Shown here in pieces: positions 1,915 through 63,394 of a stretch of 64,000 bases of DNA. The notes beneath the pieces were generated by a model. That model was not told where the DNA came from. It saw only the letters and a list, made by a program, of their open reading frames with translations, and did not search any database. The first letter of the stretch is position 1; each line of letters opens with the position of its first letter. The DNA is taken from contig WJKM01000009.1 of NCBI GenBank assembly GCA_014729085.1, forward strand, positions 61,973 to 125,972, given 5' to 3'. The DNA is from Candidatus Dojkabacteria bacterium. Lineage in GTDB: Bacteria; Patescibacteriota; Dojkabacteria; B142; WJKM01. The translations under genes and the position numbers were made by a program.

Positions 1915-1926
1915 GGAATTATTTTT

Positions 1927-4708: not shown

Positions 4709-4875
4709 TTCTCAATTCTTTAATGAGAATTAAGAAAGAAATCTTAATAAGCTTAGCGAACAAATTGTACTAAGATTAATATAACTAATGTGTAATTGAA
4801 TCATTTTTTACTGGATGAAGGAAATATACTATGATAAATAGGAAGTGAATATATTTTGCATATTAATTATTCTTT

Positions 4876-5994: not shown

Positions 5995-6108
5995 GATCAT
6001 TTCAATACAAAAAGTTGTTAAACGAGCAAATATTTTGACTCTCAATTTCCTATAGCATAAAATAAAATATGTAATTTTCATTTATTCATTATTTTTGTAA
6101 CTGCCCGT

Positions 6109-8022
6109 ATGCAGAAAGAATACTTAATTACAAACAGATTAGGAGCTTATTCCTCGAGTACATATGATCTTGGGAACACAAGAAAATATCATGGCTTACT
6201 AGTTGTTTCCAATTCTAATATTGAAAGAAAAGTAATTGTAAACAGGCTAGATGAAAAAGTTGAATTCAGAGGACGGATTGAATATTTAAGCACTAATATT
6301 TATAAAGGTAACTATATAAATCCGTCAGGACATAAATGGCTCAGAAATTTCTCTCTTGAGGATGATCCACTATTTGAATATTTAATAGAATTAATCAGAA
6401 TAAAAAAGAGGATTAAGTTAGCTGATAGATCCAATAAAGTAGAAATTTTTTATGATATAGAAACAAAAATCCCCTTTTTCCTTACAGTTAAACCTTTATT
6501 AACCAATCGTTCTTTTCATGCATTGTCAAAATTTGAAAATACAGATACGTTAAAAGTGTCGGGAAATTATAATGAGGTGAGTGTAGATCTGGATCAAGAA
6601 AGCCATTTAGATATTACTGGAAACTTTAGTGAATTTACTGAAAATAAGGATATTTTTTATAACTTTGAATATCCAGTAGAAAGGGAACGAGGATACGATT
6701 TTCTTGAAGATTTATTTTCAATTGGCGATTTTACATTCAATTTTGGTAGTGGAAAACATAAAATTAATTTGAGGTTTTCTTACCACAATAATAATGATAA
6801 ACAGACCCAGAGCAATAATTTGGATTCTGGGATACTAATAGGAAAACCATCAAAGAGTAATTTGGATACGTTTGATCTACAAAATAACGAGTTGAATGAA
6901 TTTTTGCATTTCTTAGATCAGAAAGCTGATGATTTTATAATAATTAATAATAAGAGAAAATCCATTATAGCTGGCTATCATTGGTTTGAAGATTGGGGGA
7001 GAGATACATTCATTTCATTCAGAGGGTTACTGCTATGTAGAGATAATTTCAATCTTAGTAGGAATATAATTCTGGATTGGATGAAACATATTCGAAACGG
7101 TTTGATTCCAAATCGACCAGGATTAAAGGAATATAACTCATTGGATGCTACACTGTGGTTTATAGTATCTATTTATTATTACTGGCAGGAAACCCAGGAT
7201 GATAAGTTAATTCAATCGTTAATGCCACAGATATCAAATTTGCTTCAGAATCTTATTCTTGGTACTAAATATGGTATCCATACCCTTAAAAATGGTCTTC
7301 TTATCTCTACAGATAATTCCAAAGGTTTAACATGGATGGATGCGGTTGTTAATGGTCAGGCTGTTACTCCAAGGACAGATGCAGCGGTAGAGATCCAGAT
7401 GCTTTGGTATAACGTACTCAATATCTACAAAGTATTTGAATCAAAATTTAATTCATCAAACGATAACTATTATATTAATTTAATCTTAAAAAATCTTAAA
7501 AAGACTTTTAATGAATTATTCTGGGTTGATAAAACTCAATATTTAGCAGACTCAGTTAAACAGAATAATAGGAATATAGAAATAAGACCAAATCCTGTAA
7601 TTGGTATGTCTTTACCTTTTAAATTATTAACCGATAATAAAGCAAAACTTGTTTTAGATAAAATTCAGAAAAAATTACTAACCAAAGTAGGTTTAAAAAC
7701 ATTAAGTCCAGATTCGGAAAAATATATAGGTGAGTACAAAGGAGGGCAAGAAGATCGAGATAGAGCTTATCATAACGGTACTGTATGGCCTTGGCTTTTA
7801 GGGTTCTATTTAAAAAGCTATCTGAATGTTTATGGCAAAACAGAAGTTTCGAAAAATTATATAAAATCTAAACTTTTAGATTTCTGGAGAGAAGTGCAAA
7901 ATCAAGATTTAAATTATTTGCCTGAGGTGTTTTCTGCAGACACTTTGGAACCAAACGGCTGTCTTTCCCAAGCATGGAATTATGCAACTTTAATTGAGGT
8001 TTTATATGATCTTGTTAATTAA
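6109..8022 (+). CDS. Glycogen debranching enzyme (archaeal/bacterial GDE, amylo-alpha-1,6-glucosidase family)
   Basis: A 637-aa ORF. IIAGYHWFEDWGRDTFISFRGLLL is the hallmark of the GDE_C amylo-1,6-glucosidase domain. The N-terminal domain (MQKEYLITNRLGAYSSST..KYHGLLV) is of the GDE_N type. Confidence 0.75.
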   Translation: MQKEYLITNRLGAYSSSTYDLGNTRKYHGLLVVSNSNIERKVIVNRLDEKVEFRGRIEYLSTNIYKGNYINPSGHKWLRNFSLEDDPLFEYLIELIRIKKRIKLADRSNKVEIFYDIETKIPFFLTVKPLLTNRSFHALSKFENTDTLKVSGNYNEVSVDLDQESHLDITGNFSEFTENKDIFYNFEYPVERERGYDFLEDLFSIGDFTFNFGSGKHKINLRFSYHNNNDKQTQSNNLDSGILIGKPSKSNLDTFDLQNNELNEFLHFLDQKADDFIIINNKRKSIIAGYHWFEDWGRDTFISFRGLLLCRDNFNLSRNIILDWMKHIRNGLIPNRPGLKEYNSLDATLWFIVSIYYYWQETQDDKLIQSLMPQISNLLQNLILGTKYGIHTLKNGLLISTDNSKGLTWMDAVVNGQAVTPRTDAAVEIQMLWYNVLNIYKVFESKFNSSNDNYYINLILKNLKKTFNELFWVDKTQYLADSVKQNNRNIEIRPNPVIGMSLPFKLLTDNKAKLVLDKIQKKLLTKVGLKTLSPDSEKYIGEYKGGQEDRDRAYHNGTVWPWLLGFYLKSYLNVYGKTEVSKNYIKSKLLDFWREVQNQDLNYLPEVFSADTLEPNGCLSQAWNYATLIEVLYDLVN

Positions 8023-8030
8023 TATTTTTA

Positions 8031-8468
8031 TTGATAATCATGTTAGATAATATACTAGTTTTTGCAAAAAGCAATCCATTAGTATTTACAGTATTAGCTC
8101 TTGGACTTGTAGTTTTTTTAATGCTTGTATTTGTTGTTTTTACAATAAAAAAAATTGCAGCATTTATAAAATTTGCAGTTTTTGCAATATTTATACTTAT
8201 TCTCTCGATTTTTATATATTTTTCTTTCATAAAAGATAGGAAAGCTCAGTATGATATTTGCGAAACTAATCCTGGAAGTTATGGATGCTGGGTTTGTGAG
8301 AATCAAGATCGCTACTCCGATCTTACTGTCACTCAATGTAATGATTGTAATGATAACCCTGAAGCTTTTATTGTTGGTTCAATTGTCAAATGTAAAGAAG
8401 AAACAGAAGAGGAAGGGGAGGTTTTATCAGAAAAAGAAATAATGGATATATTAGGAGTATCCGAATAG
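8031..8468 (+). CDS. Small membrane protein (2 TM helices) with a C-terminal Cys-rich acidic domain
   Basis: Two hydrophobic helices are followed by CETNPGSYGCWVCEN...CNDCNDNPEA..CKEE. It is tightly packed between the GDE and GH15 genes. I chose it over overlapping small ORFs on both strands. Confidence 0.4.
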   Translation: MIIMLDNILVFAKSNPLVFTVLALGLVVFLMLVFVVFTIKKIAAFIKFAVFAIFILILSIFIYFSFIKDRKAQYDICETNPGSYGCWVCENQDRYSDLTVTQCNDCNDNPEAFIVGSIVKCKEETEEEGEVLSEKEIMDILGVSE

Positions 8469-8507
8469 AGAAAGGTAAAAGAAATTAATTTTAAAATATT
8501 TAGGTGT

Positions 8508-10610
8508 ATGTCCACTGCCCTTGTTCTTGGAAATGGAAGTATGTTAGTCAATATAAATGATCTTTGTCAGGTTACTGACTTTTATTTCCCTTATGTGGGA
8601 CAGGAAAATCACTTATCAACTTTCGTAAATAAACTTTTTTTTCGTATCAATGGTGAATTCGTCCAAATTACTAGGAATAATTTTGATATTGACATCAATT
8701 ACCAGGAAGATTCACTTGTTGGGCATACAAAATTAAAACACAAAAAAACAGGTCTTGAAATAGATTTAATTGACCTTGTGATTCAGAACGATCAGATATT
8801 CCTTCGAAATTTTGAAATCAAAAATAATACCAAAAATCCCATTGAGATATATGTTTATTTTCAAAATAATTTTGCAATTTATTCTTATGATATTGGGGAT
8901 ACAACTGTGTGGTATCAACCGGGAAGATGTTTGGTGCATTATAAACAGAATCGTTATGTAGGTATTGGAAGCACAAAAAAGATTTATCAGTTTACGTGTG
9001 CTGCAAGAACGGATAATGATAATAGAGGAGCATATCCAGACTTAAAAACCGGTGAACTTAATTTTAATCCAATTAGCAATGGAAGCGTGAATTCTTGTGT
9101 TTCATATAAGTTTAACATTCCTCCAGGAGAAACAATGGGATCTAATTATTTCAATGTAACGGGGATGAGTTTTCAACAATTGGAAAAAAGTATAGATAAC
9201 ATTACTTCATGCGATCTGGGAAATACCTGTAAGTCAACAGTAAAATATTGGCAGAATTGGGTTAGATCTAAATCAAATATACTTTTTAGGACTAAAGGAA
9301 CTCCAAGTTTTTTTGGTGAATATGATTTAGATTCGAGAATTTACTCTTTATACAAAAGATCCTTATTAACGATTAGAACACAAATTGATAATGGAGGGGC
9401 GATCATCGCAGCCAATGATGGTAGATATTTGAAAGAAGGCGGGAAAGATACTTATTCATATTTTTGGCCTAGAGATGGTGCTTACATCATTTTGGCTTTG
9501 ATAGAATGTGGATTTAAGGAATTATCGGATGAATATTTTGAATATATTGAAAACCTTTTAACTCCTGAAGGATATTTTCTTCATAAATATTACCCACATA
9601 GTCGAGAAGGCAGAAGTGCATTGGGTAGTAGCTGGCATCCTTGGGTAGATAATTCGGGGAGTCTTCAGGAACCTATACAGGAAGATGAAACAGCTTTGAA
9701 TGTTTATGCTATTTGGAAACATTATGAACACTTCGCAGATCAAGAGTTTTTGAAAAAATATTGGAACAGCTTGATATTTCCAATGGCAAATTTTTTGGGA
9801 AATTACAGGTATACAATTGTTTATGATGCTCCCGACATTCAGGATTATGTTAGTGGTTTTCCTGAAATTGCAAAAGAGGATGAATTTATTAAAACTTATT
9901 CAGGTTCAAAGCTTCCAAAAGCTAGTTATGATTTATGGGAAGAGAGAAGAGGTATTAGTGCTTTTACCTGTTCAACTGTTTATGCTGGATTATTAGCTGC
10001 TTCTAATTTAAGTGAAGTTTTTGGAAGAACGGACTTGAAACAGATTTTTTTGAATTATGCTAATGAAATTAAAGAAGCAACTATCAATTATCTTTTCAAT
10101 GAAGATTTAGGAAGGTTTATAACACATATAATTTGTGATTCAAATACGAGTCAACCGGTAATAGATACAAAATTAGACGCCTCTTTGTATTCACTATGGC
10201 ATTTCGGCCTACTAGATGTAAACGATCCAAGAATAGAAAAAACAATGTGGGAAGTAGAAGACAAATTAACTGTAAGATCAGAAATTGGCGGTATTGCAAG
10301 ACGGGAAAATGATCATTACAATACTATAGATTCAAATTTAGTTGGAAATCCTTGGTTTATTTGCACATTATGGTTAGCTCAATATTGGACTCAGAAAGAT
10401 AATTACGATAAAGCAAAGAAGTATATTAGATGGGCAGTAGATCACGCAGATAAAAGTGGATTAATGGCCGAGCAGGCTCATCCTCATACAGGTCATGGAG
10501 AGTCGGTCAAACCGTTGACTTGGAGTCATGGGGCATTTGTTAGAACCATAAACATGCTTTGGGGAAAGATTTATAAAGGTACGTATCAAATCCCCGGAAG
10601 CAAGGATTAG
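8508..10610 (+). CDS. GH15 family glucoamylase/glucodextranase-like protein (N-terminal beta-sandwich plus catalytic barrel)
   Basis: A 700-aa ORF with the blocks ANDGRYLKEGGKDTYSYFWPRDGAYI and LWEERRGISAFTCSTVYAGL, plus a C-terminal WSHGAF motif, consistent with GH15. Confidence 0.7.
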   Translation: MSTALVLGNGSMLVNINDLCQVTDFYFPYVGQENHLSTFVNKLFFRINGEFVQITRNNFDIDINYQEDSLVGHTKLKHKKTGLEIDLIDLVIQNDQIFLRNFEIKNNTKNPIEIYVYFQNNFAIYSYDIGDTTVWYQPGRCLVHYKQNRYVGIGSTKKIYQFTCAARTDNDNRGAYPDLKTGELNFNPISNGSVNSCVSYKFNIPPGETMGSNYFNVTGMSFQQLEKSIDNITSCDLGNTCKSTVKYWQNWVRSKSNILFRTKGTPSFFGEYDLDSRIYSLYKRSLLTIRTQIDNGGAIIAANDGRYLKEGGKDTYSYFWPRDGAYIILALIECGFKELSDEYFEYIENLLTPEGYFLHKYYPHSREGRSALGSSWHPWVDNSGSLQEPIQEDETALNVYAIWKHYEHFADQEFLKKYWNSLIFPMANFLGNYRYTIVYDAPDIQDYVSGFPEIAKEDEFIKTYSGSKLPKASYDLWEERRGISAFTCSTVYAGLLAASNLSEVFGRTDLKQIFLNYANEIKEATINYLFNEDLGRFITHIICDSNTSQPVIDTKLDASLYSLWHFGLLDVNDPRIEKTMWEVEDKLTVRSEIGGIARRENDHYNTIDSNLVGNPWFICTLWLAQYWTQKDNYDKAKKYIRWAVDHADKSGLMAEQAHPHTGHGESVKPLTWSHGAFVRTINMLWGKIYKGTYQIPGSKD

Positions 10611-16075: not shown

Positions 16076-17338
16076 TTATTTTTTATTTAATTTGCATCTA
16101 CCCAAATCTTTATGGGCTTTAACAAAAGTTCTGCTAGCAAATGCAGCATGAAGACTAATTTCTCCTGCCAGTACAGCAGTTCCAATAATTTCGGCTAATT
16201 TTTGGGTAAGATTTATTTCTTTTTCTTCTTTTTCTTTTAAATTTTTACTTATGTTGGATAGAATTATTTTTTGACATTCGTTCTGAGTTGCAAGCGTTGT
16301 TCCTCCTCCTACTGTAGCAATATTTAATGAGGGGATTCGAGTATGTATATAAAGTCCTTCCTTATTTTTTTCCATATTTAGAGATGCAAGACTTCCACCA
16401 ACTACTTGAGCTGGATCCTGACCTGTGGCAATAAATATTGCAGCAAGCATATTAGCTGCATGTGCATTGAATCCAAAGCTTCCTGCCATTTGACCACCAA
16501 GCCAAATTTTGTTTTTGTTAACCTCTAGAATATCTTCGGGATTGGATTTCAGGTATTTTTTAACTATATTTTGAGGAACTGTAACTTCTGCTTCAACGAT
16601 TCTACCTCTTCCTTTAATAGTATTGATATATGCTGGTTTTTTATCTATACACATATTCCCCGAAATTGCAATAGTTTTTATGCCTTTATATTCTGTCTCA
16701 ATCCAAGAACATATTTTTTTTGTTGCAATAACTGCCATATTCATACCCATTGCATCACCGGTATCAAATACAAACCTAATCCAGATATTTTTACCATTCG
16801 AATAAAACTCATATTCCTTTATTGTTAAATATTTGTCAGTTTGATCACCAACTTTTTTGATCTTTTTAAAGTTATCTTTAAACCATTTCTCAAATTTTGA
16901 GGCTTCTTTGATATTTTTGACTCTGAAAAGAGGAGCACGGGTAATTCCAACATATTTTGATGTGACAGTTGCACCTCCTGATTCTCTTATTATCTTTGAT
17001 CCTCTATTAACACTTGCAACTAAAGCTCCCTCTGTAGTTGCAAGGGGAATTAAATATTCCCCATTTGCATGATTGCCTTTGACAGTCATAGGACCTGCAA
17101 TGCCTATTGGCAAACATGCTCCTCCAATTACATTTTCGCAATTACGTCCATAAATTTTTTTAGGGGAGAATGGAAATTTTGAGAGTGAGTCAAGTTTAGC
17201 ATTAATAAGATCTGCAATATATTCTCTTCGAATTTCTATAGCTTTGTTATGATCAGTATATTTCTCAATTTCATAAAGTTTAATCTTATTTTGATTCAAT
17301 TGTTTAATTATATCTTTCTTCTTCATAAATATAGCCAC
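16076..17338 (-). CDS. 3-hydroxy-3-methylglutaryl-CoA reductase (class I-like)
   Basis: ENVIGGACLPIGIAGPMTVKG, DAMGMNM and GTVGG blocks. It is 420 aa. Confidence 0.85.
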   Translation of the reverse strand: MAIFMKKKDIIKQLNQNKIKLYEIEKYTDHNKAIEIRREYIADLINAKLDSLSKFPFSPKKIYGRNCENVIGGACLPIGIAGPMTVKGNHANGEYLIPLATTEGALVASVNRGSKIIRESGGATVTSKYVGITRAPLFRVKNIKEASKFEKWFKDNFKKIKKVGDQTDKYLTIKEYEFYSNGKNIWIRFVFDTGDAMGMNMAVIATKKICSWIETEYKGIKTIAISGNMCIDKKPAYINTIKGRGRIVEAEVTVPQNIVKKYLKSNPEDILEVNKNKIWLGGQMAGSFGFNAHAANMLAAIFIATGQDPAQVVGGSLASLNMEKNKEGLYIHTRIPSLNIATVGGGTTLATQNECQKIILSNISKNLKEKEEKEINLTQKLAEIIGTAVLAGEISLHAAFASRTFVKAHKDLGRCKLNKK

Positions 17339-38840: not shown

Positions 38841-41060
38841 ATGAACTTCATAAAAAATAAAAAATTTAGAAATATTTTTCTTTTAATATTTCTATTCGTT
38901 CTGATAAGTATTGCTGTTATATTACTTTTTGTTTTTGTTAAGTATAAAGATCAAGAAGATAGAAGAAGTTTCCAAGCCGAAAGATATAGTATTGAAATTG
39001 ACGATTCTTCTATTAATCCTTCAATTAAAATAGAACGCGGTGGGACTTCCCTCGAATTTGAATTCATTTCTGAGGAGATTGAAAGTAACTCAGGACAATC
39101 TCAAGTCAAAGGGGTTTCAATCGATAAAGAAAAAATTTCAAAAACAGATATACCGAGTCAAGGTATTACATTTTTCAATATTCATAAAAAAGATAAGAGA
39201 AAATTCAGAAAAAAAATAACAGATTCACTTGAAGTTCTATATACTTTAACTGATACTCAAATTAAAGAAGAGTTCGTTCTGTCCGAACCTAAAGATATAG
39301 ATCATCTAAAGTTCAAAATTAATCTTGAAGGACTTGATGCACGAAAGGGATATGATGGTATTTGGAGGTTTTACAATGAGAACGGAACTGAAACCTTCTA
39401 TATACCAAAGTCATTCATGAAAGATGCAAATGATGTTCATACTGAGAATGTAAGTATTGATATTGTAGATAATATGATGGTAATGAATTTGGATAAAGGA
39501 TGGTTGCTTTCTTCTGAGAGAAAGTATCCTGTACTTATAGACCCAACAATTGTACTTAGTATATTAACCGTTCATTCACATCCACAAACCGGAGATGATT
39601 GGATTGTAGATTTTAAAACTGAAGGAACTGCTGATTTAACTATTACTCCAGATGATCAAGCAACAATAGATGATATTGACTTTCTAACTCTTAGTTGCGG
39701 TAAGGAAGAGAGGACTCCGCAAATACTTGAGAATGATGTTATTTTCTATAAAAATTGGAACTGTGAAGATACGGCCAAAGTTTTTCATTACGTAAACACA
39801 GCTGCTCCACACAGGTTGAAGTTCCAGTTTGGGCAGGAAGTCGATTATGCATATAATTCGCCAAATAGTACTATATATGCATTTTCTGGTTTATCAACTT
39901 CGATACAAGATAGATTTGCTTATGAAAAATATCCAGATTCGTTTACAGGTCCTACGGATACGGGAGTATCGGAAGCTACAGCATCTGCTTACACTAGTTT
40001 AGAGGCTGATGATGGTTCGAGATGGGTGACAGATGGAGCAAGTAATAATGGGGAGATAGATGCTCAGCTTTATAAATTCATTATAGAAGAACAAGAAGCA
40101 AGTATAACGGATCTTAATATTAAGTGGAATGGTTTTGGCGATACTAGCGGAGGAGATACAGAATTATCTATTTGGAATTGGAATTTAAATCAATGGACAC
40201 AACTTGATAGCTATCAATTTAATAATAGTACGGATCTAGATCTTATTGGGTCAATATCAGGGGGCTTTTCTTCAATTGATCCATATGTATCAAGTCAGAA
40301 TGAGGTTATACTTATGGTTCATTCTAAAAAAACATTTGTTTGCGGAGAAGATATATTATATGGTGGCCAGTATTATAATACCGTACAAATAGGTAACCAA
40401 TGTTGGATGGCAGAAAATTTAAATATAACAGATGGAAATGAAGATGGAAATTGTACTTTTACAAGTGACTGTTATATTAGTTCTTCAACTGATACTGATA
40501 ATTGTAGTACGTTTGGAGGTTTGTATTACTGGGATGAAGCAAGGTGCGGTGAAACTGCATGCAATGGTACTGGAAAGACACAACCTGAATGTACAAATCC
40601 TGTTCAAGGAATATGTCCGGATGGATGGCATATCCCTAGTCATTATGAATGGAATGCACTCGAACAGCAAGTATGTTCAGATATTGGTAATACAAATTGT
40701 AACACCGAATTTCCTTATGATGAAACTACCACTAATTACAGAGGCCAAAGTAGCTCGGATGCACATGGGGAGGCCTCTGCATTAGCCGGGGGTTGTAGTT
40801 TATGGAACAATGATGTTTTAGATAACTATGGTTCATGTAATAACGATTTCGGTACTACAGGATTAAATCTTCTTCCTGGTGGTATGTATTCTTTTGGAAG
40901 TTATCATGAGAAAAATAGAGCAGGGTATTATCTTAGTTCAACAGAAAAAGATTCAACATATATTTGGCATAGAATGTTTCATTATGCATACACGCAGACT
41001 TATAGACAACCTGTAAATAAGTCAAATGTCAATTTTTCAATACGATGTATTAAAGACTAA
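38841..41060 (+). CDS. Large secreted/membrane-anchored protein with a C-terminal Fibrobacter-succinogenes-major-paralogous (Fib_succ_major, TIGR02145-like) domain
   Basis: N-terminal TM/signal. The C-terminal roughly 240 aa begin YYNTVQIGNQCWMAENLNI and end NFSIRCIKD, the diagnostic start and end of the Fib_succ_major domain. Many Cys. Confidence 0.6.
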   Translation: MNFIKNKKFRNIFLLIFLFVLISIAVILLFVFVKYKDQEDRRSFQAERYSIEIDDSSINPSIKIERGGTSLEFEFISEEIESNSGQSQVKGVSIDKEKISKTDIPSQGITFFNIHKKDKRKFRKKITDSLEVLYTLTDTQIKEEFVLSEPKDIDHLKFKINLEGLDARKGYDGIWRFYNENGTETFYIPKSFMKDANDVHTENVSIDIVDNMMVMNLDKGWLLSSERKYPVLIDPTIVLSILTVHSHPQTGDDWIVDFKTEGTADLTITPDDQATIDDIDFLTLSCGKEERTPQILENDVIFYKNWNCEDTAKVFHYVNTAAPHRLKFQFGQEVDYAYNSPNSTIYAFSGLSTSIQDRFAYEKYPDSFTGPTDTGVSEATASAYTSLEADDGSRWVTDGASNNGEIDAQLYKFIIEEQEASITDLNIKWNGFGDTSGGDTELSIWNWNLNQWTQLDSYQFNNSTDLDLIGSISGGFSSIDPYVSSQNEVILMVHSKKTFVCGEDILYGGQYYNTVQIGNQCWMAENLNITDGNEDGNCTFTSDCYISSSTDTDNCSTFGGLYYWDEARCGETACNGTGKTQPECTNPVQGICPDGWHIPSHYEWNALEQQVCSDIGNTNCNTEFPYDETTTNYRGQSSSDAHGEASALAGGCSLWNNDVLDNYGSCNNDFGTTGLNLLPGGMYSFGSYHEKNRAGYYLSSTEKDSTYIWHRMFHYAYTQTYRQPVNKSNVNFSIRCIKD

Positions 41061-41074
41061 TTTAATCCAAAAAT

Positions 41075-44000
41075 ATGATATCAAGCATAAAACAAAAGAT
41101 ATTAAACAATATAAAAAAAATAATAAAAATTGTTATTATCCTTTGGATTTCATCAATTGTTCTTCTATTTGTAAATAGGAATTCAGAGGCTAGTTTAAAT
41201 TCTGATTATATTGAGTTAATTGTAATTTTCACCAAATCTAACGGTGAGACATGTTCAAGCGGAACAGATTGTACCTCAGGTTTTTGTATAGATGGAGTGT
41301 GTTGTGATTCGGCATGTAATACTACATGCGAGGCATGCAACCTGAGTGGTACTGAAGGTGTTTGTACTAATATTCCGGATAATCAGGATCCAGATTCGGA
41401 ATGTAGTGCTGAAATATGGTCATCTTGTGATAGTGTATGTGTAAAAAGGGGAGCAGATGGATACTGCGATGGAGCTGGAGCCTGTGATACTAATGATGAT
41501 ACTTCCTATATTCAGACTGCTGGAAAGGTGTGTTCTTCCGGAAACGAAGTAGATCCAAACTCTTCACATTATTGTGATAGAACAATTGAATGTAACGATG
41601 GTATTTGTTCTGCAACTAGATACTATAGAGGTTGCAGCTCAGGTGGTTCTTCTTGTACAGATACTGGACGAATTTCTTATGGTAATTGGAATGCTCCAGA
41701 AAATAGTACTGTTTCAGAGAATAATTATAAGACTGGCACTACCTGTTTGACTAATTTAGATTTTTGTAAATATGGAACCTACCAATGTACAGGTACAGGT
41801 TCTCCTTATTCTTGCCAGCGTTCAAGAGAAGTCTTTAGGTGTGATGGAAGTGGTTCCTGTACATATAACGCAGGAAGTGAAGTTGCAGACATTCCTAGTG
41901 GAAGTGTCTGTACAGGATCAGGGAATATAACTGCTGGAAGTTCGGACTATTATGCATTTTTAGATACTAGCGATCGCTGTTCAGATTCAACTCCGGGAAG
42001 CGGTTTTGGAGATAGAGTATATGATGTCTTTGCATGTGATGGTAATAATGCACAGGGACCTGACGTCGGAGATAGAACAATTGATTGTGCAGATGCATGT
42101 TGTTACGATGAGGGTGCGACAACTATGTGTGTTGCATCAGAAAATTTTAATACTTATGATTGGTATGATTTTGGAGTTGGAGATAGTACAGCTACTGATT
42201 ATTGCAGTATGCAGACAGTATACGATTGTTATAACGACAATGATTGTCAGCCTGGTTATTATTGTTCATCTAATTCTTGTATAAATACTTGTTCCCAAAA
42301 TTCTGATTGTCCAAATGGGTATTTTTGCAGTGAGATAGGTTCCTGTTCACCACAAAAAGTAAGTAGTGAAGCTTGTGATTTTTCAATCACAGAAACAGAC
42401 TCATCAAGCGAAAGTAATGGCGTTTGTAGTTCAGGTTATTGCAGAGATGATTACGACAATACTGAAGACGGTGATGGAAGCTGTGAAAATGGTGAATCTT
42501 GTTGGTGTGCTGATTCAAGTTTTGATTGTACAACTGATGGGATTTCTGTGAATACAGGAGAATTTGCCTCAAATGATTGTTTTGAGGGTGGTTCTGGAAT
42601 AAATCCAGGTTCACGGGCACAGTGTTCAGCAGGTGCATGGCAGTCTGTCACTTGTGGATATAGTACTTATAATTCCTGTAACAATTCCTGCGAAAAAGGA
42701 AGAGACGTTTATCACTGCGATAATACAGATAATACATGTTTTGATAGCGGAGAAGATGATTATAGTACAGTCTCTTTAAGCAAAGTATGTGATAACGGAA
42801 ATGAAGTTAATGCAACAAGTGAGACGTTAGCATGTGATAACAACACTGATTATTTTTGTACTAAAGGAGCCTGTGCCGGATCTTATAGATATTCCGAATG
42901 TAATGGATCTGGTATTTGTGATACAAGTTCAACTAACAATTACGAAGAGTATGGAGTTACTGCTGACGTAGGGTATACACTAACTTCAAATTGTCAAACT
43001 AATGGAACTACTATTTGTGGAACAGGAAGCTGGATTTGTTCTGGAACATGCGGTATTACCCGCGAAGAATATAGATGTGATTCAAGCCAGACATGCTCAG
43101 AATATATAGGAGATGAATCACAACCTTGTGGAATTGGGGAATATTGCAGCTCTGGTGCTTGTGGGACAGGAACATGTAATGAAACTAGAACCTATTGTCC
43201 TGCATCTGGTGATGATAATTATAATGTGGGTGGAGATTTATTTTGCCAAGCAACATGTGATGGAAATTATAACTGTGATTATGCAACAAATTGTATTGAG
43301 GTATGTGGAGATAGTGTTGTTTCTGTTTCCGAGGGATGTGATGACGGAGATACCGAAGATAACGATGGTTGTTCTTCTGCTTGTACTGTAGAAACAGGAT
43401 GGAGTTGCAGTGGAGAACCGAGTGTATGTACAGAGATACACGGAGACGGAGTAATAGCAGGAGCAGAAGAATGCGATGATGGGAATACAGAAGATGGAGA
43501 CGGTTGTACATCAATTGGAAATATAGAAACAGGATGGAGTTGCAGCGGAGAACCAAGTGTATGTACTGAGATACACGGAGACGGAATAATAGTAGGAACA
43601 GAAGAATGTGATGATGGGAATACAGACAACGGAGATGGTTGTACATCAACTGGAAATATAGAAACAGGATGGAGTTGTAGCGGTGAGCCAAGTGTATGTA
43701 CAGAGGATGATACAGATGGTGATGGATTGACTGATAATTATGAGTTACTTATAGGTACTGATCCTAATGTTTATGATAGTTGTGATCAAGCAAGCGATTG
43801 TGAATCCGATGAATTTTGTGCTTCTACTTTACAGGTAGGTGCCTGTCTTTTAAAAAAATCAACGGGTAGTGTCTGTGATTATAACGAAACAGAAACTGAT
43901 TCAGCTGCAGAAAGTCATGCAGTTTGCAATTCGGGAGTTTGTCATGATGATTATGATAATAGTCTAGAAAATGGTAATGGTTTATGTGAAGCAAATGAGG

Positions 44001-45586
44001 AATGTTGGTGTGTTTCTAACCAAAATGAATGTGTTACAGATGGTAACTTAGTAAATAACCAATCATATGCATCCAATAATTGTATTTCAGATGGGTCTGG
44101 AACTACATCTGGACAAAGAGCCCAATGTATAGATGGAGTATGGAGTGGGGCTTATTGCGAATTCGGAGATTGGGATACTTGTAATGGACGTTGCGAAAAA
44201 GGAAGATCGGTTTTCTATTGCGAAGATTCATCAAATTCTTGTTACGAAAGTGGTATAAAGGCCTATTCTTCTTTACAAATACCAAGTAAGGTATGTCAAA
44301 ATGGAAATGAAATAGATGCTAATAACGAAACAATTGCCTGTGATGGCGATACTAATACATTCTGTAATGATGGTGCTTGTGTAGGCTTTATTAGATTTTC
44401 AGAATGTGATACCAGCTCTAATTGTGATAATGAATCTAATACCTATTATGAACAAATAGAAATTACTGCCGATGTAGGACATACTCTTACTTCAAATTGT
44501 TCAACTGCAGGCAATACGATTTGTGATTATGGAAATTGGAGATGTAGTGGGTCTTGTGAACGTGAAAGAGATAAATATAGATGTGATTCAAATCAGCAAT
44601 GCGAAGAAGAAGTTGGAGAGGAAAACGAAAACATTAATGCTAATAGAGTTTGTAAAGATGGTAGAAATGTCGATGCAAACTCTATAGACTTATCTTGCAA
44701 TCAATCAGCAGATTATTTTTGTGATTCCGGTGCGTGTTCAGGTTATATACTGTACCCAGAGTGTGATGGGGATGGTTTTTGTGATACTCTTGCTAAGGAA
44801 TTTTATGAAAAAATAAATATTACTGCAGAAGAGGGATTTGCACTTACTGCTCAATGTAAGCAGCAAGAAAGCTCAACATGTGGAGAAGGTACAACTTTCA
44901 TACAAGATGATTCAATTCCGAGATCTGCGGTTTGCGGAGATGGTATTGTTCAGAATGGAGAAGAGTGTGATGATCATAATGTCATTGCTGGAGATGGATG
45001 TTCACCTGAATGTAGAAATGAGGTTTCTGAAACTGAGGATTCTACTTATGATGGACAGTCTACTGATGATTCCGAGACGAGTAGGAGTCCCGAAATAACA
45101 GCTACGGGAACTATAGTTGTGACAGGAACTTCGATACCTTCTGAGGAGGTTGATAAAAAAGCTGATTCTGATTCAGATCAAATCCCTGATTATTGGGAAA
45201 AACAATATTCATGTATGAATTGGGAACTTATCAATAGTGCTGATGATTCTGATGGTGATGGGTTAAGTAATCTGAAAGAATTTGAAATCAATACAAACCC
45301 CTGCGATAAAGATTCAGATAAAGATGGCATTGAAGATGGTGATGAAGTTAATCAAGGACTTAATCCAAGAATTGCAAATTTGGAAAATATTTCTATTGAA
45401 GATCAGAAAGATATAACACGAACAGATGATGATATACAGGTCTCAGAAGATATTCAGGTTACACGTGAAGAATCTTTTATTGCTAAATTATTTAGTAATA
45501 AAAGTATATTAATCGCTGGTTCATTTTCATTGCTTTTTTTAATTGGAGTTATAATTGCAATCTTTGTAAAAAAGAAGATTACATAG
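41075..45586 (+). CDS. Giant (1503 aa) secreted Cys-rich repeat protein with Myxococcus-type cysteine-rich repeats, thrombospondin-3-like Ca-binding motifs and a C-terminal TM anchor
   Basis: Signal/TM N-terminus. About 12% Cys. Three tandem CGD..V..EGCDDG(N/D)TEDGDGC...ETGWSCSGEPSVCTE repeats (DUF4215/TIGR02232-like) plus a fourth at CGDGIVQNGEECDDHNVIAGDGCSPEC. Also DTDGDGLTDNYE and DSDGDGLSNLKE..DKDSDKDGIEDGDE motifs. It ends LIAGSFSLLFLIGVIIAIFVKKKIT. Confidence 0.7.
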   Translation: MISSIKQKILNNIKKIIKIVIILWISSIVLLFVNRNSEASLNSDYIELIVIFTKSNGETCSSGTDCTSGFCIDGVCCDSACNTTCEACNLSGTEGVCTNIPDNQDPDSECSAEIWSSCDSVCVKRGADGYCDGAGACDTNDDTSYIQTAGKVCSSGNEVDPNSSHYCDRTIECNDGICSATRYYRGCSSGGSSCTDTGRISYGNWNAPENSTVSENNYKTGTTCLTNLDFCKYGTYQCTGTGSPYSCQRSREVFRCDGSGSCTYNAGSEVADIPSGSVCTGSGNITAGSSDYYAFLDTSDRCSDSTPGSGFGDRVYDVFACDGNNAQGPDVGDRTIDCADACCYDEGATTMCVASENFNTYDWYDFGVGDSTATDYCSMQTVYDCYNDNDCQPGYYCSSNSCINTCSQNSDCPNGYFCSEIGSCSPQKVSSEACDFSITETDSSSESNGVCSSGYCRDDYDNTEDGDGSCENGESCWCADSSFDCTTDGISVNTGEFASNDCFEGGSGINPGSRAQCSAGAWQSVTCGYSTYNSCNNSCEKGRDVYHCDNTDNTCFDSGEDDYSTVSLSKVCDNGNEVNATSETLACDNNTDYFCTKGACAGSYRYSECNGSGICDTSSTNNYEEYGVTADVGYTLTSNCQTNGTTICGTGSWICSGTCGITREEYRCDSSQTCSEYIGDESQPCGIGEYCSSGACGTGTCNETRTYCPASGDDNYNVGGDLFCQATCDGNYNCDYATNCIEVCGDSVVSVSEGCDDGDTEDNDGCSSACTVETGWSCSGEPSVCTEIHGDGVIAGAEECDDGNTEDGDGCTSIGNIETGWSCSGEPSVCTEIHGDGIIVGTEECDDGNTDNGDGCTSTGNIETGWSCSGEPSVCTEDDTDGDGLTDNYELLIGTDPNVYDSCDQASDCESDEFCASTLQVGACLLKKSTGSVCDYNETETDSAAESHAVCNSGVCHDDYDNSLENGNGLCEANEECWCVSNQNECVTDGNLVNNQSYASNNCISDGSGTTSGQRAQCIDGVWSGAYCEFGDWDTCNGRCEKGRSVFYCEDSSNSCYESGIKAYSSLQIPSKVCQNGNEIDANNETIACDGDTNTFCNDGACVGFIRFSECDTSSNCDNESNTYYEQIEITADVGHTLTSNCSTAGNTICDYGNWRCSGSCERERDKYRCDSNQQCEEEVGEENENINANRVCKDGRNVDANSIDLSCNQSADYFCDSGACSGYILYPECDGDGFCDTLAKEFYEKINITAEEGFALTAQCKQQESSTCGEGTTFIQDDSIPRSAVCGDGIVQNGEECDDHNVIAGDGCSPECRNEVSETEDSTYDGQSTDDSETSRSPEITATGTIVVTGTSIPSEEVDKKADSDSDQIPDYWEKQYSCMNWELINSADDSDGDGLSNLKEFEINTNPCDKDSDKDGIEDGDEVNQGLNPRIANLENISIEDQKDITRTDDDIQVSEDIQVTREESFIAKLFSNKSILIAGSFSLLFLIGVIIAIFVKKKIT
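43390..43700. repeat. About 2.6 tandem copies of a 120-bp near-identical in-frame coding repeat inside the giant protein gene
   Basis: gaaacaggatggagttgcag(t/c)gga gaacc(g/a)agtgtatgtac(a/t)gagatacacggagacgga recurs with period 120 at about 43390, 43510 and 43630. Confidence 0.75.
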
Positions 45587-49923: not shown

Positions 49924-51072
49924 TTAGTTTATAATATCTGTAATCAGACCTTTTGTGCCAAATCCTACATCGTAAAATTTGTAGTGGTAGTTTGCGGCTA
50001 ATTCTTGAAGTAAACTTTTATTTGAATGATAAGTCAACAGCGCACCTGATTTATCCTTGCCTTGTCCTCCTGCTCCAGAGATTTTACATGCACCTCCCCT
50101 AGATCTAATAATAGCAGAAATTTCCTTGACTCTATCAGATACAACACCTAATTTTTCTAATAAGATACCATTAGAGTTAATAAAATCTATATATTTTTTA
50201 GTACTGAATTTATTACTTTCAGATTCATTAATAAATTGTTCTAAGTTTGTTTGAATTGCATCAAATATTTTATTAGTTCTTCTTCTATTGAATGATTTTT
50301 CTTTTTGTACAAAATTTACCAATTCACCTGTCGATTGATCAGCGGATCCGGTATGAATAATGATTGAATTAGAAAGCATGGATTTTAGATCTGGATTTTT
50401 TATTTCTAATTGTTTTATAGAAGGTTTACTTGTTGATTTTTTTGAAAACTGTATCATTTGTCCATAAACTATTATTGCTGGATCTGCTCCGCTAGGATTC
50501 CCGTGTTGAAACTTTTCATATTCCAGTGTCAGATCAAATATTTTTTTATTATTAAAGTCGATTTCTGCAGCTTTAAGCATAGAAGAGATTAAAGAAGCTC
50601 CTAAAGAAGCAGAAAATCCGAAACCTGCCGAAAAAGGTAAATTGGAATTGAAGTTGATATTAAAAGACGGATAATACCCGAGATGTTTATCAATCTCTGT
50701 TAAGGCAATGGCAAAAATGATTTTAAAAAACCCATAATCTTCGTTAACAACTTTAGATAGTGATTGAAAATCCCCTCCACTCAAATAATTATTACGAGCT
50801 TTTTGGGCTTGTTCATATGTTTTGAATATTTCTTGTTGGGAATAAGACATATCTTTCATTTTATAAAGAGGGTTTTTATACTCCAAGAAATTAATATTTC
50901 CATTTTTGCCCGTTATTTGGGCTTCTGCAGAAGAATTTAAATTAATTGTTGTTAGTATCGCATCATACTTAGGATAGACTACTGTATGTTCACCAAATAG
51001 AATTGTTTTTCCCGGTGTAACTGCAAATGCTTTTGACATATTAAAGTAATTTATAATATTGGAAAATATCAA
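49924..51072 (-). CDS. GHMP kinase, probable phosphomevalonate kinase (could instead be a second mevalonate-kinase paralog)
   Basis: GKTILFGEHTVVY, GHMP motif NLPFSAGFGFSASLGASL, C-terminal ISGAGGQG. It is the last gene of the mevalonate operon. Confidence 0.5.
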   Translation of the reverse strand: MIFSNIINYFNMSKAFAVTPGKTILFGEHTVVYPKYDAILTTINLNSSAEAQITGKNGNINFLEYKNPLYKMKDMSYSQQEIFKTYEQAQKARNNYLSGGDFQSLSKVVNEDYGFFKIIFAIALTEIDKHLGYYPSFNINFNSNLPFSAGFGFSASLGASLISSMLKAAEIDFNNKKIFDLTLEYEKFQHGNPSGADPAIIVYGQMIQFSKKSTSKPSIKQLEIKNPDLKSMLSNSIIIHTGSADQSTGELVNFVQKEKSFNRRRTNKIFDAIQTNLEQFINESESNKFSTKKYIDFINSNGILLEKLGVVSDRVKEISAIIRSRGGACKISGAGGQGKDKSGALLTYHSNKSLLQELAANYHYKFYDVGFGTKGLITDIIN

Positions 51073-54146: not shown

Positions 54147-54794
54147 ATGCCAAAAGAAAACTTACAAAATATTGAAAACAAAGAACCTTCTAGTGAAGAA
54201 ATTGAATATGTTGCTGTAATAAATAATGAAGGCGAAGTAGAATTCGAAGCGAGAGATAAAGCATCAAATCCTGAAAATGATCTAAAAAGGTTAATTATAG
54301 GCTTGTTAGGATTTACAAGGAATGAAGAAGGAGAAGATTGTATGATACTTCAAAGACGTTCCAGATCCAAAAAGGAATATCCTGATCATTTAACATTTGC
54401 AGCATCTGGACATATAAATCCTGAAGACTTGGTTGAAGATGAAGTTGATTTTATAGGTGCTATGGCTAGAGAACTAAATGAGGAGATGGGTATTACTACT
54501 ATACCAAGTTTAGCATTAATTTCATCTTTTGAAAGTAGAGAACAAAAAGAAGGATACCCTGATATAAGGAAAGAAATGATGTTAGGGGTTACTCAAATTG
54601 AGCTTTCTCAATTAGAAAATTTTACTACGACAGATGAAGTTAGTAGTTATGAATTAATTCCTTGGGAAAAAGTATTAACTCAGGTCATGACTGATCCAGA
54701 AGATAGGGAAGAGAAGTATAAATTTACAATTCCATTTGAGCAGTCAATTCTTCATTTAGTTGACACAGCAGATGCCTTAATGCGAGAACCTTAA
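54147..54794 (+). CDS. Nudix hydrolase (IDI-1-like fold, acidic N-terminus)
   Basis: Nudix box GHINPEDLVEDEVDFIGAMARELNEEMGI. It runs convergent to and overlaps the mevalonate kinase gene by 4 nt. Confidence 0.55.
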   Translation: MPKENLQNIENKEPSSEEIEYVAVINNEGEVEFEARDKASNPENDLKRLIIGLLGFTRNEEGEDCMILQRRSRSKKEYPDHLTFAASGHINPEDLVEDEVDFIGAMARELNEEMGITTIPSLALISSFESREQKEGYPDIRKEMMLGVTQIELSQLENFTTTDEVSSYELIPWEKVLTQVMTDPEDREEKYKFTIPFEQSILHLVDTADALMREP

Positions 54795-55762
54795 TTTTCT
54801 AATCTGACTCCTTCCACATTAGTCTTAATTTTAATTGGTTCACCTCCTGCGTTTAAGATGGCGTTTTCTATTTGATTCATCTTTGATTTCGGAGCAACAG
54901 CTATCATATTGTCTCCTATACCAGCACCGGAGAGTTTAGCACCAAAAGCTCCAGAATTACGCGCTGCATATACTAGTTTTGAAAGTATTAAACTATTTAC
55001 ACCTAGAGATTCTAAATAACCTTGATTGAAATTCATCAGATCACCAAATAATTTCAAATCATAGTCCAATAGGGCTTTTTTACCTTTCTGTACTAAATAT
55101 GAAATTGAATCAAATATAGAGTTTACTACATTCGGATATTTTTCTAATTTTTCTGCTACTTTTTCTACTATATCTGCGGTATGAGCTTTAGTTTTTGTGT
55201 AACCTATTATTAAAGGCAAGGATTCTACATCAATTTTTTTAATTATTTCTCCTCTTTTAGAGTAAAATAAAGTTTTTCCATATACTGCAGCTGCTATATC
55301 AAATCCAGAGCTTAGTCCTCGAATATCAAAGTGAGTTTTATAAGCCAAATTAAAAACTTGTCTAGGTGTAATTTTAATCCCAAATATCTCGGCCAAAGCT
55401 TTGATTGTACATACTGCAGAAGCAGAAGAGGATCCAAAACCCAATTTTGAAGAGAATTCTGAATTTGTTGAGATCGAAATTCCAGTATCAATTTTATATT
55501 CATCACTAAAGTTTTTAACCGCAGTTTCAATATACAATGCACCTTTGGGAATATCATTCTGCAAAAGTTTATTAAAAGGTTTTTTGTAATTTTTTACTTT
55601 AACATCCGGTGCGTTTAAGATTAAAATATCATCTTTAATAATGTGCATATTAAGATACAGTCTTTGTTCAACGGCTGTAACGATACATGGATGCTTGTGA
55701 ACAACTGAGTGTTCTCCCAATAACATTAATTTCCCAGGAGCAGATACTTTAATTTTTTTCAT
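54791..55762 (-). CDS. mvk: Mevalonate kinase
   Basis: SAPGKLMLLGEHSVV, GHMP motif KLGFGSSSASAV, C-terminal LSGAGIGDNMIA. Confidence 0.75.
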   Translation of the reverse strand: MKKIKVSAPGKLMLLGEHSVVHKHPCIVTAVEQRLYLNMHIIKDDILILNAPDVKVKNYKKPFNKLLQNDIPKGALYIETAVKNFSDEYKIDTGISISTNSEFSSKLGFGSSSASAVCTIKALAEIFGIKITPRQVFNLAYKTHFDIRGLSSGFDIAAAVYGKTLFYSKRGEIIKKIDVESLPLIIGYTKTKAHTADIVEKVAEKLEKYPNVVNSIFDSISYLVQKGKKALLDYDLKLFGDLMNFNQGYLESLGVNSLILSKLVYAARNSGAFGAKLSGAGIGDNMIAVAPKSKMNQIENAILNAGGEPIKIKTNVEGVRLEN

Positions 55763-61010: not shown

Positions 61011-62153
61011 TTATATTTTTTCAAATATGTTTACAATACAGGTAGCTCCGCTACCTCCTATATTATGTGTTAGGCCATATTTCATATCTTTTTGAACTTG
61101 TCGTTTACCTGCTTTTCCGGTAAGTTGTTTAACAATTTCAACTGCTTGCTTAACTCCAGTGGCACCTACAGGATGTCCTGCTGCTTTAAGCCCTCCGGAC
61201 AGGTTTGTTGGAATTGAGCCATCCATTTGAGTATCTCCAGATTCCACAAATTGACCCCCTTTACCTTTCTCAACAAACCCAAGATCTTCATAAGCTAAAA
61301 TTTCAGCTATTGAAAAGCAGTCATGTACCTCCATAATATCAATATCTTTATTTTTAAGCTTTGATTGTTTAAATGCTCTTTCTTTAGCTTTGATTGTAGC
61401 TTCTAGAATTGTGATATCTTTTCGATCATGTAAGGCAAGGGAATCTTGAGCATGTCCAGATGCTATTAGTCTAATCTCAGATTTTTTCTTTGATGACATT
61501 ACAATTGCAGCCGCTCCATCTGAAATAGGAGAGGAATCGAAAAGTTTTAAAGGATCAGCAACAACCGGAGATCTTAAAACCTGTTCAACAGTAATCTCTT
61601 TTTGGAAATGTGCGTCTGGATTAAGAGTACCGTGTTTATGATTTTTTACAGAGCACATTGCTAGCTGTTCATGACTTGTTCCATATCTATTCATATGCTC
61701 TCTTGCGATCATTGCATAAAGTGATGGGAAAGTCACACCATAAAAAGCTTCCCATTCCTCATCGCTTGCGCCTGATAAACCTTCAGTTGCATTTTTAGTG
61801 TTTACATCGGTCATTTTTTCAACTCCTAGAATCAGGGCATTTTCTGAAGATCCACTAAGTAAATCAAGGAAACCAGCTCTAATTGCTGCAGAACCTGAGG
61901 CACAAGCTGCTTCAATATGAAACGCTGGACAATCCAGACCTAATTCTGTTGCAAATAAAGCACCTAGGTGGTCTTGTCCTGTGTAATGGGATGCTGCCAT
62001 ATTTGCAACATATAACACATCAATATCCTGAAGATTTATTTTAGAGTTTTGAACGGCATTAACTGCAGCCTCAACTCCAAGATCTCTAAAGTCTCGTTTC
62101 CAAAGTTCCCCAAATTTGGTTGTGTAGCCTCCGTTAACATATACTTGTTTCAT
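61011..62153 (-). CDS. Thiolase (acetyl-CoA C-acetyltransferase, archaeal/SCP-x-like type)
   Basis: The active-site Cys region EAACASGSAAIRAG, the C-terminal NIGGSGATCIVNI and overall 380-aa thiolase colinearity. Confidence 0.8.
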   Translation of the reverse strand: MKQVYVNGGYTTKFGELWKRDFRDLGVEAAVNAVQNSKINLQDIDVLYVANMAASHYTGQDHLGALFATELGLDCPAFHIEAACASGSAAIRAGFLDLLSGSSENALILGVEKMTDVNTKNATEGLSGASDEEWEAFYGVTFPSLYAMIAREHMNRYGTSHEQLAMCSVKNHKHGTLNPDAHFQKEITVEQVLRSPVVADPLKLFDSSPISDGAAAIVMSSKKKSEIRLIASGHAQDSLALHDRKDITILEATIKAKERAFKQSKLKNKDIDIMEVHDCFSIAEILAYEDLGFVEKGKGGQFVESGDTQMDGSIPTNLSGGLKAAGHPVGATGVKQAVEIVKQLTGKAGKRQVQKDMKYGLTHNIGGSGATCIVNIFEKI

Positions 62154-62169: not shown

Positions 62170-62601
62170 TTAGATTTGGCTTGAATTTTTTTCAACTTTT
62201 ATGTCTGTTTCTTGTATTTCATCGAATTGATAGAAACCTGTTTTGGGATCTTTCTTTATTTTGAAATATCTTACCGGAATTTTTAACTCTTTTTCACAAT
62301 AATAAATCTCAGCAGCTACACCATCAGAGACTTTATCAAAAACCCATAGTTCATTAGCTAATCTGATTAAATTATCATTGACATCATATATCAATTTTCT
62401 TGAGATAGTATCCCCAAAAAAATAGTTAAAATTCATGAATGGATTAAGGGGAACTAATTTTTTTTCTAGAATAAATTTGGATATATGTTCTCTTAGAAAA
62501 AATTTTTGTTTAGAGTATGCAGGATATATTACCTTGAATTTTTTCCTTTTTCTCTTTAAATCATTTTTATTTATAATTTTTTGAATTTTTTTAATCATCA
62601 A
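62170..62601 (-). CDS. Hypothetical protein (possible nucleoside-2-deoxyribosyltransferase-like/DUF4406 fold)
   Basis: A weak pattern (LVPLNPF...ELWVFD..SDGVAAEIYYC) only. Confidence 0.25.
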   Translation of the reverse strand: MMIKKIQKIINKNDLKRKRKKFKVIYPAYSKQKFFLREHISKFILEKKLVPLNPFMNFNYFFGDTISRKLIYDVNDNLIRLANELWVFDKVSDGVAAEIYYCEKELKIPVRYFKIKKDPKTGFYQFDEIQETDIKVEKNSSQI

Positions 62602-63394
62602 TATTTTTTAATTTTTTGTTAACAAGTATGAATATACCAAATAGTAAAACTAGTCCAGAACTATTAATCACAATATATGCAGTTGATTTTCTAAGCATTG
62701 AGTTCCGTTCCGTAACATTTGAATATACCCCTGAAACGTTGTATCCTCTTGAAGATAAGCCACAATCAGTATTTACATAATTTGAGAGAAGATTTGCAGA
62801 ATTTGTAACATCTACATAATGTGCAAGTTTGGAATAATTAAAAAATGTTCCTTTTGGGAACCATTTATATACAACTTTTGTCTCTTTGTTATTTTCATTA
62901 CCTTCCTGAATATTTTCAATTTCTACTTTCTTTTCTATTTCATCTGCAGGAAATAGAATTGTACAAGAAGCTACATCGCTTTGACCATTCATATCTATAA
63001 TTGAAAGTCTTACATTATAATATCCTGGATATTTAAATTGATGGGCAAGTTTTTTTTCACCGACGAGACCTGTTCCATCATCTATTCGCCAAATATACTT
63101 TTCAACCTCATCTTTATACGTTTTGGAAATAGAGGCATCAAATTCAATTATTCTATTTTCCCAGTCTATATTTGCGACAAATCTTGCAATAGGATTGAAG
63201 GCAGCTGGCCATATTTCTGAACCCTTTATTTTAACTAAGTCTGTAATATAAGGAATTGTAGAGAGTAAAAGTGATATTTCTAGAAAAAGAAAAATACATA
63301 ACAAAAATATTTTTAGTATTTTTTTATATTTTTTCTTAAAAAAATCAGTTGTAGTATTGAATAATCTTTCTATTGTCTTTTTCTTTTTAGCCAT
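62591..63394 (-). CDS. Membrane-anchored protein with a PKD-like domain
   Basis: An N-terminal TM helix. WRIDDGTG......HQFKYPGYYNVRLSIIDMNGQSDVASCTI matches the PKD pattern WdFGDG...HtY..pG.YtVtLtVtD. Confidence 0.45.
   Translation of the reverse strand: MAKKKKTIERLFNTTTDFFKKKYKKILKIFLLCIFLFLEISLLLSTIPYITDLVKIKGSEIWPAAFNPIARFVANIDWENRIIEFDASISKTYKDEVEKYIWRIDDGTGLVGEKKLAHQFKYPGYYNVRLSIIDMNGQSDVASCTILFPADEIEKKVEIENIQEGNENNKETKVVYKWFPKGTFFNYSKLAHYVDVTNSANLLSNYVNTDCGLSSRGYNVSGVYSNVTERNSMLRKSTAYIVINSSGLVLLFGIFILVNKKLKNIDD

Follow-up and report, generated by a model that had tools for sequence, protein, structure and literature searches.

A tandem DUF4215 array, related to domain M3 of pappalysins, in a predicted cysteine-rich surface protein of a probable CPR-type bacterium

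The window analysed here is a stretch of 64,000 nt from contig WJKM01000009.1, and it carries on its forward strand a large open reading frame (ORF, 41075..45586) for a cysteine-rich modular protein of 1503 aa with a short tandem repeat in its middle. We found that this repeat consists of three consecutive DUF4215 domains (known also as the 'Myxococcus cysteine-rich acidic repeat'); as far as can be read from its sequence, it is an ordinary tandem repeat, with no sign of antigenic or length variation. Our favoured explanation, to which we assign a probability of about 0.72, is that the three-unit array in the ectodomain of this membrane-anchored protein, which is of a type seen in the Candidate Phyla Radiation (CPR), is the product of domain duplication over evolutionary time and not an actively length-variable contingency locus. 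The points of interest are modest: one specific disulfide is missing in the duplicated units, and the modules flanking the array are rare and uncharacterised.

Tandem Repeats Finder places the array at 43389-43705 (score 529, 91% matches) and counts 2.3 copies of a 135-nt period, and the shifted alignment across the repeat has an E-value of 3e-75 in a self-blastn, so the repeat is real and far beyond chance. The sequence-only reading of this DNA had described three units of 120 bp (40 aa) with about 90% identity: the tandem repeat and its level of identity are borne out, but the period is 135 nt or 45 aa (the consensus string given there itself counts 45 residues), and the near-identical copies number 2.35 instead of three. 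This copy number is found in the codon register of highest identity, in which two full units (43388-43522 and 43523-43657) differ at 13 positions (90.4% identity) and are followed by a partial third copy of 48 nt (43658-43705) that is 87.5-92% identical to the matching part of both full units.

In the register of the domain, three complete 45-aa units (A, B and C, at a spacing of 45 and 45 residues) are seen on the forward strand. They were delimited with our own hidden Markov model (HMM), with which 224 repeat instances were gathered from 17 proteins (16 homologues and the window protein). Unit A (aa 743-787; 43301-43435) is canonical and has six cysteines. Unit B (aa 788-832; 43436-43570, corresponding to 43388-43522 in the register of the sequence-only reading) has Cys1 replaced by His and Cys4 by Gly, and unit C (aa 833-877; 43571-43705) is, by DNA comparison, a duplicate of B that lacks the same two cysteines. 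Each unit is made up of a head of 29 aa (x-C-G-D-G-x5-E-x-C-D-D-G-N-x3-G-D-G-C-S-x-x-C) and a tail of 16 aa (V/I-E-T-G-W-S-C-S-G-E-P-S-V-C-T-E). Between B and C, nine of the 87 nt of the head differ, whereas the head of unit A differs from both at 35-37 of 87 nt (∼60% identity). The tails of A, B and C differ pairwise at 4-6 of 48 nt, and at the protein level they are identical except for V or I at the first tail residue; in the 48-nt tail at 43658-43705, a third to half of the synonymous sites differ among the tails despite the near-identical protein.

The identity of the unit was established from two family collections: in Pfam, DUF4215 (PF13948) matches four stretches of the protein (E 1.5e-19; 70.5 bits versus a cutoff of 27), and in NCBIfam, TIGR02232 ('cysteine-rich acidic repeat') matches four stretches as well (E 2.2e-36; 123.4 bits versus a cutoff of 20.8). 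The acidic motif of the family (E-x-C-D-D-G-N-x3-G-D-G-C) is exact in B and C, and the other two units deviate from it at single positions: unit A has D for N, and N-D-G-C, and a fourth unit further downstream (unit D, described below) has D-D-H-N.

Searches with a profile of 49 homologue units connected the repeat to human pappalysins: the profile matches pappalysin-2 (8sl1, residues 880-925) with an E-value of 1e-11 and pappalysin-1 (7ufg/7y5n/8a7d, residues 866-910) with an E-value of 1.4e-10, and these matches span all 45 positions including the six cysteines. Pappalysin was reached only with the unit profile, as a phmmer search of the PDB with the whole protein gave no match. The AlphaFold (AF2) model of units A-C has a predicted local distance difference test score (pLDDT) of 95.5 and the same coil-plus-hairpin secondary structure in all three units, and all of the 11 PDB matches reported for it by Foldseek (probability 0.94-1.00) are pappalysin chains. 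By homology, as judged from profiles and a predicted model, the 45-residue unit and M3 of human pappalysin-1 are one and the same domain, a small coil-rich acidic head followed by a beta-hairpin tail. Domain M3 of PAPP-A was described from cryo-EM as made of 'coils and strands' and binds two Ca2+ ions (PMC9579167), and its disulfides C867-C895, C880-C891 and C903-C910 (PMC9780223) correspond to Cys1-Cys4, Cys2-Cys3 and Cys5-Cys6 of the unit. When M3 is taken as delimited in the former study (S944-G995), it gives a full-length match to the DUF4215 unit profile (E 1e-10). By analogy, the units of the array probably bind Ca2+.

Units B and C depart from this pattern in one respect. With His for Cys1 and Gly for Cys4, they keep Cys2, Cys3, Cys5, Cys6 and the acidic motif, so that A has the six cysteines typical of the family and B and C have four each; loss of Cys1 or Cys4 in a full-length unit was seen only in B and C among the 224 instances. 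Because B and C still score as family members, we regard them as a degenerate variant and not as a different domain. The missing cysteines are exactly the Cys1-Cys4 pair, one disulfide in the solved pappalysin-1 domain, and their joint loss agrees with the experimentally determined pairing. We infer that both cysteines of the Cys1-Cys4 disulfide were already missing from the unit that was later duplicated.

The age of the duplication was estimated from the two full units by the Nei-Gojobori method: six synonymous and seven non-synonymous differences give a synonymous divergence (dS) of 0.24, a non-synonymous divergence (dN) of 0.07 and a dN/dS of ∼0.28. The 13 differences (11 transitions and two transversions, in five synonymous and seven non-synonymous codons) are evenly distributed along the unit, the protein identity of the pair is 85%, and exact matches between any two copies extend over at most 22 nt. 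The sequence-only reading had seen in the repeat a very recent expansion or ongoing variation. That part of it is not upheld: a dS of ∼0.24 means that about a quarter of the synonymous sites have changed, too many for a very recent duplication, and the even spread of the differences, the short exact runs and the 2.35 copies also speak against it. Both copies appear, from the substitution pattern, to have been held under purifying selection since the duplication. Proportions of synonymous differences (pS) are 0.32-0.53 among the tails and 0.155 between the heads of B and C, all from very small counts.

Slippage and RecA-dependent exchange in bacteria drop steeply once repeats diverge by a few percent, and both need longer perfect matches; the effect of divergence is reportedly set out in the work of S. 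Lovett on bacterial repeat instability. Our literature search for a quantitative effect of repeat divergence on deletion rates returned nothing directly usable. Since its copies are only ∼90% identical and share exact runs of at most 22 nt, the array is ill suited to frequent changes in copy number.

Comparison with homologues places the window array within a wider pattern. Arrays in homologues comprise 3-11 units that recur every 43-56 aa, and pairs of similar units (78-89% protein identity) are found in five of these proteins (P0107, 0.89; P0032, 0.84; P0108, 0.83; P0034 and P0043, both 0.78). Unit duplication, by sequence comparison, recurs family-wide and the pair in the window is an ordinary case. 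Length differences do occur among related proteins that share a 90%-identity cluster, and those examined are due to truncated gene calls, not to repeat variation. The exact protein has no record in public assemblies, and searches with the whole protein gave partial matches only (best coverage 21%), with no orthologue in which repeat numbers could be compared. No comparable gene was found at the locus in the three genomes with the nearest histidyl-tRNA synthetase (HisRS; 61-62% identity), and a metagenome scan with the first cysteine-rich module of the protein (module 1) gave a single weak match of 32 residues.

The array is embedded in a protein that itself has grown by duplication. An older diverged duplication had been proposed from the sequence at about 42360-43160 and 43860-44660, and it holds up: aa 404-674 (42284-43096) and aa 901-1176 (43775-44602), within ∼80 nt of these positions, share 49% identity when the two halves are compared by blastp (E 1.3e-80), and at the DNA level the best segment in a self-blastn is ∼66% identical at an offset of ∼1.5 kb. 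The first copy is cysteine-rich module 1 (aa 404-742; 42284..43300), composed of sub-modules alpha, beta and gamma, and the second is cysteine-rich module 2 (aa 901-1285; 43775..44929), composed of alpha, beta and a second beta (aa 1072-1153 and 1191-1272 are 38% identical by blastp); the division is based on blastn, blastp and jackhmmer. Upstream of module 1, an N-terminal cysteine-rich region (aa 40-403; 41192..42283) contains a further diverged copy of the beta sub-module, found as a local jackhmmer match at aa 64-232 and by blastp (aa 115-292 versus 1033-1206 of module 2, 30% identity). These self-comparisons agree with the earlier suggestion that the gene grew by module duplication.

Other parts of the protein follow the same two-fold arrangement. 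A bacterial thrombospondin type-3 (TSP3) calcium-binding motif, DTDGDGLTDNYE, lies directly after the array (43709..43744) and was identified by Pfam (TSP3_bac, PF18884, at aa 879-898; 43 bits versus a cutoff of 25) and by a motif scan, in which D-x-D-x-D-G-x-x-D-x-x-E starts at aa 879, 1391 and 1413. The latter two starts are TSP3-like motifs at aa 1391-1402 and 1413-1424 (45245..45346), where TSP3_bac matches two stretches and blastp aligns aa 880-908 with 1392-1415. The fourth DUF4215 unit, D (aa 1286-1316; 44930..45022), is a four-cysteine head without the tail hairpin and was found with the NCBIfam, Pfam and our own models. The first half of the ectodomain (aa 404-900) thus has an alpha-beta-gamma module, three DUF4215 units and one TSP3 motif, and the second half (aa 901-1424) has an alpha-beta-beta module, one DUF4215 unit and two TSP3 motifs. 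This order of parts suggests that the old duplication took in a whole super-module of ∼500 aa.

Taken as a surface protein, the product of 41075..45586 is predicted to be anchored in the membrane at hydrophobic segments near both termini, as found by Kyte-Doolittle scans: an N-terminal segment (aa 12-37; 41108..41185), which may be a signal peptide or a signal anchor, and a C-terminal anchor followed by KKKIT (aa 1472-1503; 45488..45583). These segments fit the earlier placement of the repeat in a surface-protein gene. There are 135 cysteines in the ORF (9.0%). The GC content of the gene is raised, but its value at third codon positions (GC3, 0.19) equals that of the neighbouring genes and the value at second positions (GC2, 0.49) accounts for the difference; because GC3 is the same, the gene is native and the raised GC reflects amino-acid composition, which rules out a recent horizontal transfer as its source.

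Under the explanation that we favour, an early duplication of the ∼500-aa super-module would have given rise to the two halves of the ectodomain, each with a cysteine-rich module, DUF4215 units and TSP3 motifs. Later the array would have grown through in-frame tandem duplication of one 135-nt unit, by unequal exchange or replication slippage, and the unit that was copied would already have been without its Cys1-Cys4 disulfide; about a quarter of the synonymous sites would have changed since then, with purifying selection acting on both copies. As to function, the DUF4215 and TSP3 units may serve as a Ca2+-stiffened spacer or stalk, and this stalk might hold the novel cysteine-rich modules off the cell, where they could attach to a host cell or a polymer.

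Several points weigh against this explanation. The 48-nt third copy at 43658-43705 is not accounted for by a single duplication of 135 nt, and it would require strong protein-level constraint on the tail, an extra event or gene conversion. The array is known from one assembled sequence, and its copy number could still be polymorphic today. Homology and composition suggest that the protein binds Ca2+, is exposed at the surface and has an adhesive role, and the assignment of the window to WWE3 or the CPR derives from a single marker, HisRS at 61% identity.

Different histories have been considered for the array. It could be a contingency locus in which 135-nt units are currently gained and lost through slipped-strand mispairing or unequal recombination, giving length variants of a surface antigen; in-frame tandem units within a predicted surface protein would suit such a role, the similar unit pairs in other family members show that unit birth recurs, and strain variation has been reported for large cysteine-rich extracellular CPR proteins (PMC4736985). 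We consider this unlikely, as the copies are not near-identical at the DNA level (90.4% identity, evenly spread differences, a dS of 0.24 and exact runs of at most 22 nt), there are only 2.35 of them with no donors elsewhere in the window, and the length differences examined between cluster mates of related proteins are truncations. No further copy of the unit or of the whole protein was found in the 64-kb window, and a reading of the repeat as a partner of silent cassettes was thereby ruled out. A history in which the duplication is much older and gene conversion (concerted evolution) has kept B, C and the three tails alike is, in our judgement, at least as improbable. Such a history would explain why the tails are 87.5-92% identical in DNA and near-identical in protein while the head of unit A is at ∼60%, and why a single 135-nt duplication does not yield 2.35 copies; however, the longest identical tract of 22 nt bears no mark of recent conversion, and the pS of the tails is not below that of the B and C heads (0.32-0.53 versus 0.155, very small counts), which fits protein-level constraint better.

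That the repeat number was collapsed or inflated by mis-assembly is very unlikely. Tandem repeats are a known assembly hazard, but with no exact repeat longer than 22 nt all k-mers of at least 23 are unique here, the frame is intact through all units, the substitutions respect the conserved motif residues (dN/dS 0.28), and the three-unit model has a pLDDT of 95.5. CPR bacteria are rich in diversity-generating retroelements, and two repeats of ∼135 nt with ∼90% identity resemble the template/variable repeat pair of such an element. Yet non-adenine positions make up 8 of the 13 differences in one unit and 11 of 13 in the other, six of the differences are pyrimidine (C/T) transitions, and both copies are coding and adjacent; we give this reading almost no credence and regard it as ruled out by the substitution pattern. 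Comparison of 42 window ORFs with Pfam turned up no reverse transcriptase, in a scan that left about ten ORFs of at least 150 aa and all shorter ORFs outside.

The cysteine-rich modules other than DUF4215 are a separate matter. They have no Pfam family and no relative of solved structure in the searches made: neither the N-terminal region (aa 40-403) nor the two modules matched a Pfam family, even at E<=1. The model of module 1 is all-beta, with a pLDDT of 73 overall and ∼90 over residues 120-300. When module 1 was compared exhaustively with 1.84 billion representative proteins by phmmer, 35 of them matched at E<=1e-3, none spanning the full module, and the few homologues named in word-indexed searches are labelled Woesearchaeota, Thorarchaeota, 'archaeon', Polyangiaceae and other Myxococcota/'Deltaproteobacteria'. 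It may be speculated that the ∼340-aa alpha-beta-gamma modules form a new domain family that is restricted to CPR bacteria and DPANN-type archaea, as ultra-small episymbionts, and acts in host attachment, and that the DUF4215/TSP3 stalk is adjusted in length as 45-aa units are gained and lost, and is possibly still polymorphic; we think this rather doubtful as a whole.

The array can be compared with several known systems. DUF4215 (PF13948)/TIGR02232 arrays are found in Myxococcota, other bacteria and some eukaryotes, and the window array resembles them in its period of 45 aa, acidic motif, hairpin tail and tandem layout. It differs from them in being short (three units plus one, whereas homologues have as many as 11 consecutive units), in having two units without Cys1 and Cys4, and in its host, which is probably a low-GC CPR-type bacterium and not a myxobacterium. 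M3 of human pappalysin-1 and -2 (PDB 7UFG, 8A7D, 7Y5N, 8SL1) is the same domain by profile and fold and has the same six-cysteine pattern, and its two Ca2+ ions are known for pappalysin; however, M3 is present there in single copy within a metalloprotease scaffold, whereas the window protein has a tandem array in what is predicted to be a non-enzymatic surface protein, and B and C, unlike M3, lack the 1-4 disulfide. The alpha C and Rib proteins of group B streptococci are surface proteins in which whole structural units are likewise repeated in tandem and in frame, but those repeats are present in many identical or near-identical copies at the DNA level and change in copy number, in contrast to the 2.35 copies at ∼90% identity seen here.

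A further parallel is with Candidatus Peribacter riflensis and other CPR Peribacteria, for which extracellular proteins of 1655 +/- 751 aa with 7.2 +/- 2.4% cysteine were described in 2016; these are weakly similar to Myxococcus repeats and to pappalysin-1, and a role in attachment was proposed for them (PMC4736985). The window protein is of comparable size (1503 aa) and cysteine content (9.0%) and also has a putative signal sequence, and it shows the features of this class of large cysteine-rich CPR extracellular proteins: more than 1000 aa, several percent cysteine, a signal, and similarity to Myxococcus repeats and pappalysin. As such proteins have been described in Peribacteria (PMC4736985), this kind of protein is already known. 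The present case differs in its lineage (the nearest marker is from WWE3), in being a single gene beside a gene for a FISUMP (Fibrobacter succinogenes major paralogous) domain protein instead of part of a 14-gene cluster, and in its non-DUF4215 modules, which are rare (the 35 matches above). To our knowledge, none of the large cysteine-rich surface proteins of CPR bacteria has been characterised. Attachment to other cells is the presumed way of life of CPR bacteria, and such proteins are leading candidates for the contact; the gene described here would be a clean example of how a surface protein is built via nested duplication of disulfide-rich modules, and since one of the modules is tied to a solved Ca2+-binding domain of human pappalysin, structural and biochemical tests are straightforward.

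The FISUMP gene (38841..41060, forward strand; Pfam and NCBIfam) lies directly upstream. Its product of 739 aa has a membrane segment at the N-terminus and a Fib_succ_major domain at the C-terminus. A gap of 14 nt separates it from the surface-protein gene, and the two genes are probably co-transcribed as an operon of envelope proteins. Other neighbours are bacterial housekeeping genes (MnmA, signal peptidase I, inorganic pyrophosphatase, ribulose-phosphate epimerase, HisRS and a HAD hydrolase), and the GC content of the window is ∼30%. The closest HisRS (61% identity) is from a metagenome-assembled genome (MAG) of candidate division WWE3. HisRS sequences of 62% identity, as close as that of WWE3, are encoded in CAZRUW010000031.1 and CAZEJU010000001.1, from MAGs titled 'uncultured Gammaproteobacteria', and these labels look doubtful.

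Two ORFs run antisense to the array: one of 168 aa with a TTG start (43185..43691, reverse strand) and one nested in it (43279-43629). Neither matches a Pfam family (best E 0.17-0.42), whereas the overlapping sense frame matches DUF4215 with an E-value of 1.5e-19. Because they lack a family match and overlap a stop-poor, repeated sense sequence with strong family matches, we judged that they are not genes, in agreement with the sequence-only reading, which took them for by-products of the repeats.

Several other gene groups were observed in the window. Genes of mevalonate-pathway type, including HMG-CoA reductase and thiolase, are found at 16076-17338, 49924-51072, 54791-55762 and 61011-62153; the GHMP kinase at 49924-51072 is confirmed by Pfam, and the product of 54791-55762 is kinase-like by its N-terminal sequence only. 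A mevalonate pathway has been reported for CPR Peribacteria genomes too. A glycogen/starch-type cluster (652-10610) includes a GT4/GT5 synthase, a GH57 protein, a debranching enzyme and two GH15-like proteins, and is interrupted by a gene (3287-4708) for an M14 carboxypeptidase with S-layer homology domains. Near the end of the window, 62591-63394 encodes a PKD-domain protein of 267 aa with a basic N-terminus, possibly another envelope protein.

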